Position numbers and translations under genes: made by a program. Source: Nanobdellota archaeon (GTDB taxonomy: Archaea > Nanobdellota > Nanobdellia > SCGC-AAA011-G17 > JACPNG01). Taken from it: 16,536 bases of DNA. The stretch spans positions 1 to 16,536 of the forward strand of contig JBBSWJ010000008.1 of the NCBI GenBank assembly GCA_038046345.1. The letters run 5' to 3'. The notes under the pieces are model-generated. The model was not told where the DNA came from. It searched no databases and saw nothing but the letters and a program-made list of their open reading frames with translations. Shown piece by piece: positions 7,975 to 12,991 of the stretch (the stretch's first letter is position 1; every line of letters begins with the position of its first letter).

Positions 7975-8061
7975 TGGGTCTGCGAGGATTTGAACCCCGG
8001 TTTACTCCTTTCACCATTACCAATAGGGGGGAGTTGTTCTATCCAGCTATACTACAGACCC
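7975..8061 (-). tRNA. Intron-containing tRNA, most likely tRNA-Arg(CCT); 14-nt intron 8010-8023 at 37/38
   Basis: GGGTCTG TA GTAT AGCTGGATA GAAC A ACTCC CC CCT A[TTGGTAATGGTGAA]A GGAGT AAAC CGGGG TTCAAAT CCTCG CAGACCC A. A20 in the D-loop fits Arg. tRNA status is near certain; the isotype is less so because position 33 is C. Confidence 0.75.
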
Positions 8062-11149: not shown

Positions 11150-11276
11150 AATAATACTAAAATTTAATCTTATATATTTATTGTGCTTTTAGATAATCAT
11201 TTATTGCTTTCAAAGAATTAAATGGTTTTTAACTAGAGTCATTTATTATAGAATCTCACACATTCAAGTAATAAAA

Positions 11277-11360
11277 TGCGGGGAACAGGGTTTGAACCTG
11301 CGTAGGCACTAAGCCAGCGGATTTTGAGTCCGCCCCGTTTGGCCGCTCCGGCATCCCCGC
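11277..11360 (-). tRNA. tRNA-Leu(CAA)
   Basis: 84-nt class II cloverleaf: GCGGGGA...GCGGA CT CAA AA TCCGC, long variable arm, GCAGG TTCAAAC CCTGT, TCCCCGC A; no intron, no encoded CCA. Confidence 0.96.
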
Positions 11361-11381
11361 ATAGTCAAAGGATGTTTAAAT

Positions 11382-11412
11382 TGTTTAAGAAATTTGTGGT
11401 AAAGTTTAAAAG
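11382..11412. promoter_or_regulatory. Back-to-back promoters of tRNA-Leu (minus) and SRP RNA (plus)
   Basis: CTTAAACA (minus, 11389-11382) and AAAG-TTTAAAAG (plus, 11405-11412), each about 20-21 nt from the respective RNA 5' end. Confidence 0.55.
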
Positions 11413-11431
11413 GTTCATTTATCGTGTAAGG

Positions 11432-11703
11432 AATGGACTAGGTTGGGAATTTGGCCTTATTCCTGTCACCGCAAACAGGCCTCATGGCGGGACTGAAGCT
11501 TGGGAGGCGAGGTTAGTATTGATCATCAGTCCTTTGCTGGACGTAGAAGTCTTGTCCTCTTCGGCTGTGATGTCTGTGAACCGAGTCAGGGCAGGAATGC
11601 AGCAGCTCTTAGCAGACATGATAGCGCTTAGGGGGGCGCAGGATGGAGAAAGGCAATGGGTAGCTGATGGTTAAGCTATCTTCCACTTTCAGGCGTGTCC
11701 ATT
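11432..11703 (+). ncRNA. ffs: Archaeal SRP (7S) RNA
   Basis: Helix 8 with SRP54-binding motif TCAGG-GCA-GGAA-TGC-AGCAG (11586-11605); helix 1 AATGGAC/GTCCATT; Alu helix GGAAT/ATTCC with loop-loop complement GGCCT/AGGCC; long helix-5 pairings; T-run at the 3' end. Confidence 0.92.
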
Positions 11704-12419
11704 TTTTCTAAGTCCCATTCAATAAGTCTGACAAATTCTTCAAGAGCTTTACAAAAATGTTTACGATAATCTAAACTTTGGTCACCATTAGCAAACTTCA
11801 TTGCATGATAATCCTTGTTGTCTTCGGTTTTTTCTAGTTGAGCTGCTCTATGTACAGCATAACCATGTATTACATGTCTTTGAAGTATAAAACTATCAAG
11901 TTTACAAATTTGTTGATGCAAATCACTCTGAAATGCTGGTACGCTTAGGTGATCAAGTTGGTCTGATAGTTGATCATCTTCATGATGTGATTCAATTTCA
12001 TCTTCAAGGGCCTTATAGGCTAGGTATATCAACTCATCAATATCTGGGTCTTCGTGTTTAGCTCTGTTTGTATAGGTATCATTCATATCCCAGTAGACTA
12101 GTTTTGCAATCAGTTCAACAAGTTCGTAAGCATCTTCAAATTGGTCTTCTAATCCTTCATGGGGAATATCTGCTCCTGCGATTACCCTTCTTTTGATCAC
12201 TGGTTTTATTCTTTCTAAAACTGGTTTGTATCCAGCTTCATGAACACCAAGGCTATCAAAATAAGCTCTTAGCTTTTGCGAGATGTGCTCTTTTTTCTCG
12301 CATTTAGTTATATTACTGAAGATAGCATAGCATATCCCATCTATTTGGCTGCCAGAATGAGTCCAAGTATCATGAGTCAATCGTGGTCCAATTTCTTGTT
12401 GTATATGTTCGGTAAGCAT
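11676..12419 (-). CDS. Hypothetical protein (247 aa, acidic, His-rich, predicted helical)
   Basis: Long ATG-started ORF with no recognised motif. Confidence 0.7.
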   Translation of the reverse strand: MLTEHIQQEIGPRLTHDTWTHSGSQIDGICYAIFSNITKCEKKEHISQKLRAYFDSLGVHEAGYKPVLERIKPVIKRRVIAGADIPHEGLEDQFEDAYELVELIAKLVYWDMNDTYTNRAKHEDPDIDELIYLAYKALEDEIESHHEDDQLSDQLDHLSVPAFQSDLHQQICKLDSFILQRHVIHGYAVHRAAQLEKTEDNKDYHAMKFANGDQSLDYRKHFCKALEEFVRLIEWDLEKMDTPESGR

Positions 12420-12472: not shown

Positions 12473-12991
12473 TTACAAATCAGCGTTCAATGCTTCTGTA
12501 TTTATGTTTGCTATTATAGTCCCAAGATTTTGTACTATTAAAGTATACATTTTGTCTAAAAGGACTTCGTAAAGCCCTTCTTTTAAATCCCCAGAACAAT
12601 AGCTTATCAGGTTTTGCATTTCAGTAATTGGCTCTTTTTTTAGTAAATTTTTAGGTACATTACAAATCATTGATCGTCCTTCAAGTTTTTCTACTGTCTC
12701 TTGGGATATTCCATTAGCTACGGATAGCATGGTGCTCCTTATAACACACCTGTCACCTGATGGTCCGAATATAACAAACTTGTATAAGTTATTATTAATG
12801 GCTGTTTTTACTGCTGCTGCTTTGCAGGAATAAGCTTTGCTGTTAAAGCAGTTTATATCATCACCGCAGTTTTTCTTTATTAAACCAGATAAGAATATTA
12901 AATAGAGTAATGACAATAAAATCACAGTTATCAAGACATAGTTTCTTATTGTTAGAAATGATGTTCTTTTTATTATGTTCCTCTTTTTCAT
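12473..12991 (-). CDS. Membrane-anchored hypothetical protein with a six-Cys ectodomain
   Basis: Basic N-terminus plus hydrophobic helix YVLITVILLSLLYLIFL, then CGDDINCF..A..C..C..C..C. Confidence 0.72.
   Translation of the reverse strand: MKKRNIIKRTSFLTIRNYVLITVILLSLLYLIFLSGLIKKNCGDDINCFNSKAYSCKAAAVKTAINNNLYKFVIFGPSGDRCVIRSTMLSVANGISQETVEKLEGRSMICNVPKNLLKKEPITEMQNLISYCSGDLKEGLYEVLLDKMYTLIVQNLGTIIANINTEALNADL

Follow-up and report, generated by a model that had tools for sequence, protein, structure and literature searches.

The window, by which we mean the whole 16,536-nt stretch of DNA analysed here, contains a genuine archaeal SRP RNA gene whose product lacks helix 6. We consider it very likely that this is the single functional SRP RNA of a member of the Woesearchaeota (DPANN; Nanoarchaeota/Nanobdellota in GTDB), that its helix-6-less form is shared across the lineage, and that it operates in a particle whose only protein is SRP54. 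A phylum of archaea apparently without both SRP19 and helix 6 runs against the claims of universality made in reviews: a 2010 review places SRP19 genes in all archaeal subgroups, coexisting with helix 6, and a clamp between helices 6 and 8 probably in all archaeal and eukaryotic SRP RNAs (PMC2905702). As there is no helix 6, this 'adenosine clamp', described for all archaea, cannot form in the window RNA. No report of such a loss was found in the literature on SRP19, helix 6 or SRP RNA in DPANN archaea, Woesearchaeota or Nanoarchaeum, in which PMC7203096 was covered in part, its passages on SRP19 excepted; nor is SRP19 among the entries in the supplements of PMC7414124.

Identity and architecture of the SRP RNA

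The best Rfam match of the window RNA is RF01857, the archaeal SRP RNA family, with a full-length match well above the gathering score (cmscan; 132.5 bits against 96.5, E = 1.4e-30, covering model positions 1–317, i.e. the complete model). The ends given by this match, 11431–11704 (274 nt), bear out the 11432–11703 of the original prediction, and a single copy of the gene was found in the source genome. Its features and flanking signals are listed in Table 1. An element of the form (A)AA-N-(C/G)TTTAAAA lies at an equal distance 5' of the SRP RNA in essentially all of 29 related loci; most of these have T-rich stretches 3' of the gene, and the six-T run at the 3' end of the window RNA is, from its sequence, likely to be an archaeal terminator. 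Folded alone, the RNA forms an unbranched rod of -106.2 kcal/mol (z = -3.08), a stability reached by none of 200 shuffled sequences. Its SRP54-binding tip, GUCAGG-GCA-GGAA-UGC-AGCAGC (11585–11606), carries the universal GUCAGG...GGAA...AGCAGC motif.

Table 1. Features of the SRP RNA, its gene and associated genes (window positions unless a contig is named; a slash separates paired or opposing strands)
Feature	Position	Strand	Basis or remark
SRP (7S) RNA gene, 274 nt	11431–11704	+	RF01857 covariance-model match
TATA box, TTTAAAA	11405–11411	+	about 23–27 nt 5' of the RNA start; A-rich, BRE-like stretch before the box
Run of six T at the RNA 3' end	11702–11707	+	read from the sequence
Helix 1, 5' strand	11433–11437	+	pairs with 11698–11702; closes both RNA ends
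Alu domain	11441–11494	+	helices 2, 3 and 4 and the UGUNR motif
Helix 2	11441–11444/11491–11494	+	Alu domain
Helix 3	11445–11449/11460–11464	+	Alu domain
UGUNR motif, as UGUCA	11464–11468	+	Alu domain; read from sequence and alignment
Helix 4	11469–11472/11487–11490	+	Alu domain
Helix 5, 5' strand	11498–11568	+	partner 11621–11694
Helix 5 internal loop, 5' strand, UGGACGUAGAA	11538–11548	+	conserved in relatives
Helix 5 internal loop, 3' strand, GGAGAAAG	11645–11652	+	conserved in relatives
5e motif, 5' strand, GUCC	11554–11557	+	pairs with GG 11633–11634 and GC 11638–11639
5e motif, 3-nt bulge	11635–11637	+	between 11633–11634 and 11638–11639
Expected branch point of helix 6	11569–11571	+	helix 5 and helix 8 form a continuous stack
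Helix 8, SRP54 M-domain site	11570–11619	+	universal motif match
Helix 8 asymmetric loop	11578–11582/11609–11611	+	
Helix 8 symmetric loop, CAGG/AGCA	11587–11590/11601–11604	+	
Helix 8 tetraloop, GGAA	11594–11597	+	
tRNA-Leu(CAA)	11276–11361	divergent to SRP RNA	cmscan
tRNA-Gly(CCC), 20-nt insertion in the anticodon-loop region	7975–8061	-	cmscan
SRP54 gene	contig C7, L034:1033–2382	-	

The structure was examined by comparison with 27 further SRP RNAs from the same order (alignment A1, 28 sequences of 265–279 nt each). RNAalifold returned a single unbranched rod running from helix 5 into helix 8, together with helix 1 and the Alu helices, with 82 pairs in all, 68 of which show compensatory changes. 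Cells were paired in 93.9% of cases (73.6% in shuffled alignments), 521 cells had changed on both sides (151 in shuffles) and the covariation score was 0.715 (0.305 in shuffles); none of 500 shuffles matched the observed values, and when partners were slid by one to three columns as a control, pairing fell to 35–47%. A further alignment (A3), which spans distant families of the phylum with 21 sequences, yields the identical rod, with 14 consecutive pairs running into helix 8. The rod drawn in the original prediction is therefore supported by covariation both in the order and phylum-wide, and the five arm pairings from which it had been assembled, ATGTCTG/CAGACAT (the base of helix 8), GCTGT/ATAGC, TCCTCTT/AGGGGGG, GTCTTG/CAGGAT and CCTTTGCT/GGCAATGG, are all part of the covariation-supported structure.

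Helix 1 and Alu helices 2–4 with the UGUNR motif are present as expected for RF01857, with compensatory changes in 16 of their 18 pairs. Five of these are the pairs of helix 1, all compensated, where 98.5% of cells in the same-order alignment are paired; helices 2, 3 and 4 are 98–100% paired, with compensatory changes in 11 of 13 pairs. The segments of helix 5 are 86–98% paired and most of their pairs show compensatory changes. At the far end of the rod, the helix 8 features of RF01857 (GRRA tetraloop, symmetric and asymmetric M-domain loops) are all present, and the tip stem and inner stem are 99–100% paired, again with compensatory changes. The 5e motif as described in PMC2905702, four base pairs around a 3-nt loop with two symmetric G-C pairs, fits the window RNA, and its bulge is flanked by invariant G-C and C-G pairs in the same-order alignment.

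Between these parts, the alignment to RF01857 skips 40 consecutive model positions, those of helix 6, leaving two nucleotides (GA, about 11570–11571) in their place, and then enters helix 8 directly (UGUCUGU-GAACCGAGUCAGGGCAGGAAUGCAGCAGCUC...). No helix 6 hairpin with a GNAR tetraloop stands beside helix 8 in the window RNA, and helix 6 is likewise missing in 48 other sequences. The stack that spans its site (11564–11577/11612–11625) consists of 11 pairs, nine of them compensatory, with 93.8% of cells paired. Judged from sequence comparison, the window RNA is without helix 6, and helix 5 stacks straight onto helix 8. The claim that the Alu domain had been kept and helix 6 was missing is thus upheld, the covarying pairs crossing the very junction at which the model positions are skipped, but the branch had been sought in the wrong place. 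The 10 × 7-nt loop (11539–11548/11645–11651) assigned to it exists, to within one base; however, it is an internal loop of helix 5, and helix 6 would leave at about 11569–11571, between the last helix 5 pair and helix 8.

The helix 5 loop has the consensus AC-NNN-GA opposite GAGRAA, with six positions, C, G and A in the 5' strand and A, G and A in the 3' strand, invariant in the 28 sequences. In the window RNA it aligns with the conserved 'uGA' of RF01857, and the equivalent loop in relatives of genus g26 aligns with 'GUuGA' of RF01854. By analogy with the 'distal site' of bacterial 4.5S RNA, it may be a candidate docking site for the SRP54–FtsY GTPase pair. The GTAG within it, once suggested as a remnant of a GNAR tetraloop, differs in its first three letters among relatives (GTTG, TATG, GCTG and others), and since it varies so freely it is no relic of GNAR.

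A helix 6 could have been missed if it were a short hairpin springing from this loop, GGAC 11539–11542 pairing with GUCC 11554–11557 and GTAG serving as a degenerate GNAR. Four pairs are indeed possible in the window, and 77.7% of cells are pairable in relatives; however, shuffled alignments average the same percentage, covariation is absent from these pairs, and only 13 of the 28 sequences have the first G of the GAC arm. The GUCC arm is moreover already used by the 5e motif, whose flanking pairs covary, and the hairpin would lie about 25 nt away from the helix 6 branch site of every known SRP RNA. We regard this hairpin, which the original prediction named (at 11539–11557) as an example of a helix 6 that would count against it, as scarcely credible.

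Canonical archaeal SRP RNA (RF01857; e.g. Methanocaldococcus jannaschii; 1LNG, 2V3C, PMC2905702) and the window RNA have helix 1, the Alu domain with UGUNR, helix 5 with 5e, and helix 8 in common, and both systems combine the GGAA tip and CAGG/AGCA loop of helix 8 with an archaeal-type SRP54. The canonical particle also has a helix 6 of about 40 nt capped by a GNAR tetraloop, and SRP19, whereas the window RNA has no helix 6 at all and SRP19 did not turn up in the source genome. The absence of helix 6 next to an Alu domain, helix 5 and helix 8 is instead a likeness to the large bacterial SRP RNA (RF01854, Bacteria_large_SRP; Bacillus subtilis scRNA type), as is the predicted composition of RNA plus one SRP54/Ffh protein. 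In Bacillus, HBsu additionally sits on the Alu domain. The window RNA is archaeal in sequence and partner, while its architecture equals that of the bacterial large SRP RNA.

This likeness raises the question of whether the RNA itself came from a bacterium, because the bin is contaminated or because a Bacillus-type SRP RNA was transferred horizontally. RF01854 aligns with the window RNA end to end (model positions 1–256), and the SRP RNAs of genus g26 pass the bacterial gathering score, reaching 74 bits and beating their score with the archaeal model. For the window RNA, however, RF01854 gives 55.1 bits, short of its gathering score of 60 and 77 bits behind the archaeal model. The gene has an archaeal TATA promoter and lies in an archaeal genome, the SRP54 is of archaeal type, and the same contig carries an apparently intron-bearing tRNA about 3.4 kb upstream as well as Toprim-domain and PIN-ATPase-KH genes. 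Nor does a bacterial host with an Ffh-type protein emerge, as the relatives are Woesearchaeota or Nanoarchaeota and the SRP54 is nearest to archaeal structures. The trait is also common to 142 genomes of the phylum, which argues against a bacterial origin, and the chance of one appears to us very small.

SRP19, SRP54 and the predicted particle

The SRP19 profile PF01922 had no match in the source genome or in 41 genomes of the same order, and none above cut-off in 301 genomes of the phylum. Because it missed Sulfolobus acidocaldarius, one of four control archaea, the search was repeated with NF001973 (the NCBIfam SRP19 model, PRK00754), which at the threshold applied across the 301 genomes (E ≤ 0.01) detects all four control archaea and no control bacterium. 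NF001973 gave no match in the source genome even at E ≤ 1, and a single chance match (E = 0.0026) in the 301 genomes at E ≤ 0.01. Three weak matches, counting both models, proved to be a peptidyl-tRNA hydrolase (PTH2), a stop-filled frame and part of an MCM helicase. Both profile HMMs were run on six-frame translations behind a prefilter, and the source assembly (821 kb, 35 contigs) is estimated to be 97% complete. By these searches SRP19 was not found in the genomes covered (the source and 300 others), with the positive control working. The original prediction of an SRP19-independent, Bacillus-like architecture is in keeping with this result from both models and with the end-to-end alignment to RF01854. 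Estimates of DPANN genome completeness should accordingly not count SRP19 among the markers expected in every archaeon.

An SRP19 or functional analogue might nevertheless be present in unrecognisable form, either very divergent or non-homologous, and bind helix 8 or the helix 5 loop. Evolution is fast in DPANN proteins, PF01922 failed on one control archaeon in four, and these genomes contain many small unannotated ORFs, two of which lie beside the SRP RNA gene and have no Pfam match. Against this, NF001973 recognised every control archaeon and found nothing real in 301 genomes, and without the binding hairpin there is nothing to hold a true SRP19. The conserved neighbouring ORF (12473–12991) is unlike a cytosolic RNA binder, since it combines a membrane anchor with a Cys-containing domain. 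We think a hidden SRP19 improbable, with only a slight chance of being correct.

The source genome encodes both SRP54 (449 aa) and FtsY (337 aa). The two genes adjoin on one strand of contig C7, 71 nt apart (L034:1033–3467, reverse strand). The N, G and M domains of SRP54 are all present (PF02881, PF00448 and PF02978), and the match to PF02978 covers profile positions 1–89 of 91. Its closest solved structures are archaeal, those of P. furiosus (3DM5, 416 bits) and M. jannaschii (about 392 bits), compared with 294 bits for B. subtilis and about 270 for E. coli, and the records of its relatives are named Candidatus Woesearchaeota, Nanoarchaeota or Nanobdellota, all DPANN archaea. On the RNA side, all known elements for the SRP54 M domain are kept: the symmetric loop CAGG/AGCA, the asymmetric loop and the GGAA tip.

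We propose a particle composed of the helix-6-less RNA and archaeal SRP54, in which the M domain would sit on the loops of helix 8, and which would work with FtsY as a two-part SRP in the manner of Bacillus and other bacteria. SRP19 would take no part in it, because its docking hairpin is missing and its gene was not found. Archaeal SRP54 can bind SRP RNA without SRP19, as in Archaeoglobus and Haloferax, and deletion of SRP19 in Haloferax volcanii left protein translocation and membrane insertion unaffected (PMC2905702; PMC6098224); archaeal SRP can thus assemble and work without SRP19, which makes a two-part particle plausible. Haloferax and Archaeoglobus still encode SRP19 and helix 6, however, whereas in the lineage of the window helix 6 is missing and SRP19 was not found, phylum-wide. 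We expect the two-part particle to be active, and it would offer a natural two-component archaeal SRP in which the contributions of SRP19 and helix 6 can be tested.

Distribution in the phylum and evolutionary origin

An SRP RNA match was obtained in 35 of 41 genomes of the same order and, among 151 genomes sampled across the phylum, each at least 90% complete, in 142, almost all of them 263–279 nt long. Five of the nine genomes of the phylum without a match still gave none in a small, laxer search, and BLAST with the window RNA against the genomes without a match returned nothing. A search for the helix 8 motif recovered divergent, 260-nt, helix-6-less SRP RNAs in two of three genomes of g26, a genus of the window's order. 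These RNAs (L142:1355–1614, forward strand; L145:1407–1666, reverse strand) are missing the UGUNR stretch. They were missed by the archaeal model, and automatic annotation would label them bacterial. The architecture described here would explain SRP RNA genes that are under-scored or labelled bacterial in standard annotation. In genome G138 a contig begins with the helix 8 motif (L144:1–20), so that the SRP RNA gene was probably cut by the assembly, while G094 (about 0.5 Mb in one contig, 98% complete) yielded no SRP RNA by the archaeal model, BLAST or the helix 8 motif.

The tip of helix 8 varies within the group. Among 43 related SRP RNAs of alignments A1, A2 and A3 with a readable tip, the tetraloop is GGAA in 27, UGAC in 11 and GGGA in three; UGAU and a 6-nt loop are the rarest, each found once. 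The 2010 review lists archaeal helix 8 tips as GRRA only (PMC2905702).

We infer that the state without helix 6 and SRP19 arose by loss. The opposite polarity would make the absence ancestral: helix 6 and SRP19 would have arisen only after DPANN branched, the phylum would preserve the original, Bacillus-like archaeal SRP, and the SRP19/helix 6 module would be a later invention in the stem of the remaining archaea, inherited by eukaryotes. The uniformity of the trait across the phylum fits such a history, as does the lack of any hairpin vestige at the junction, and the architecture equals the large bacterial form. However, genome reduction in DPANN makes loss the simpler reading, and SRP19, being dispensable in Haloferax (PMC2905702), would be easy to lose; DPANN monophyly and the archaeal root are disputed, and the present data do not polarise the helix 6 character. 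We judge ancestral absence unlikely, and a later invention of the module equally so, though both retain some weight. If the absence were ancestral, it would be a structural character of a rare kind, with a bearing on where the archaeal tree is rooted. The presence or absence of the helix 6/SRP19 module is in any case a discrete character for the disputed phylogeny of DPANN and archaea.

Surroundings of the gene and intron-like insertions

The genes around the SRP RNA gene are of a housekeeping type and include MsrA, a GCD14/Trm61-like methyltransferase, a PIN-ATPase-KH protein, a Toprim-domain gene and an arginase-family protein. A 116-aa ORF that overlaps the SRP RNA (11324–11674, forward strand) was taken to be spurious. 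On the reverse strand, the SRP RNA is separated from its usual neighbour by a 247-aa acidic ORF (11676–12419) that has neither a Pfam match nor a homologue in 29 related loci; about nine codons at the end of this ORF run antisense to the 3' end of the RNA. The usual neighbour is a 172-aa ORF (12473–12991, reverse strand) that matches no Pfam family, has a membrane anchor at its N terminus and includes a Cys-containing domain, features that make it unlikely to be an SRP protein. Homologues of this ORF lie near the SRP RNA gene in 20 of the 29 related loci, and where they abut it they are located just 3' on the opposite strand, in convergent orientation, often with a Toprim-domain gene next.

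Six of the seven longer SRP RNA genes encountered among the relatives were inspected. None has a helix 6, and they were rejected as carriers of one because their insertions all map inside helix 8. Three such genes, 301–307 nt long, belong to the window's order and have 0–2 nt at the helix 6 site (L012:1501–1801, reverse strand; L020:725–1027, forward strand; L118:51–357, reverse strand; genomes G008, G006 and G022, from two families). Their insertions of 29–35 nt lie between the helix 8 tip (CUG-GGAA-CAG) and the AGCA loop and have a geometry like that of a bulge–helix–bulge, with a 4-bp GAAC/GUUC helix and 3-nt bulges on opposite strands (AGA/AGU and AAA). The inner helix differs among the genomes by compensatory changes, and excision of the insertion restores the canonical GGCUGGGAACAGAGCAGCC. 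From these features the insertions in the three same-order genes are probably tRNA-type introns.

Another three long genes, of 309–320 nt, were found in genus g77, which belongs to another family (L119:51–359, reverse strand; L120:51–370, reverse strand; L121:51–364, forward strand). Here cmscan placed an insertion of 35–37 nt at the helix 6 site; this is a misplacement, as alignment with six intron-less congeners of 272–274 nt (alignment A2) puts the insertion in the 5' strand of the helix 8 symmetric loop, where CUGGUC precedes it and AGGCC follows. It measures 37–46 nt and contains a CUGG/CCAG helix, UCA and AGA bulges, and an inner helix of 7 bp that shows compensatory changes. The circularly permuted SRP RNA of Thermoproteus (Plagens et al. 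2015, PMC4731332) is another archaeal departure from the textbook gene, and is relevant to the intron-like insertions of these relatives because bulge–helix–bulge processing is used there. Thermoproteus, however, keeps helix 6 and SRP19, whereas the window gene is neither permuted nor interrupted.

In the window itself, the 20-nt insertion of tRNA-Gly(CCC) is, from its position in the anticodon-loop region, probably a tRNA intron, which would mean that the source genome makes use of the splicing machinery.
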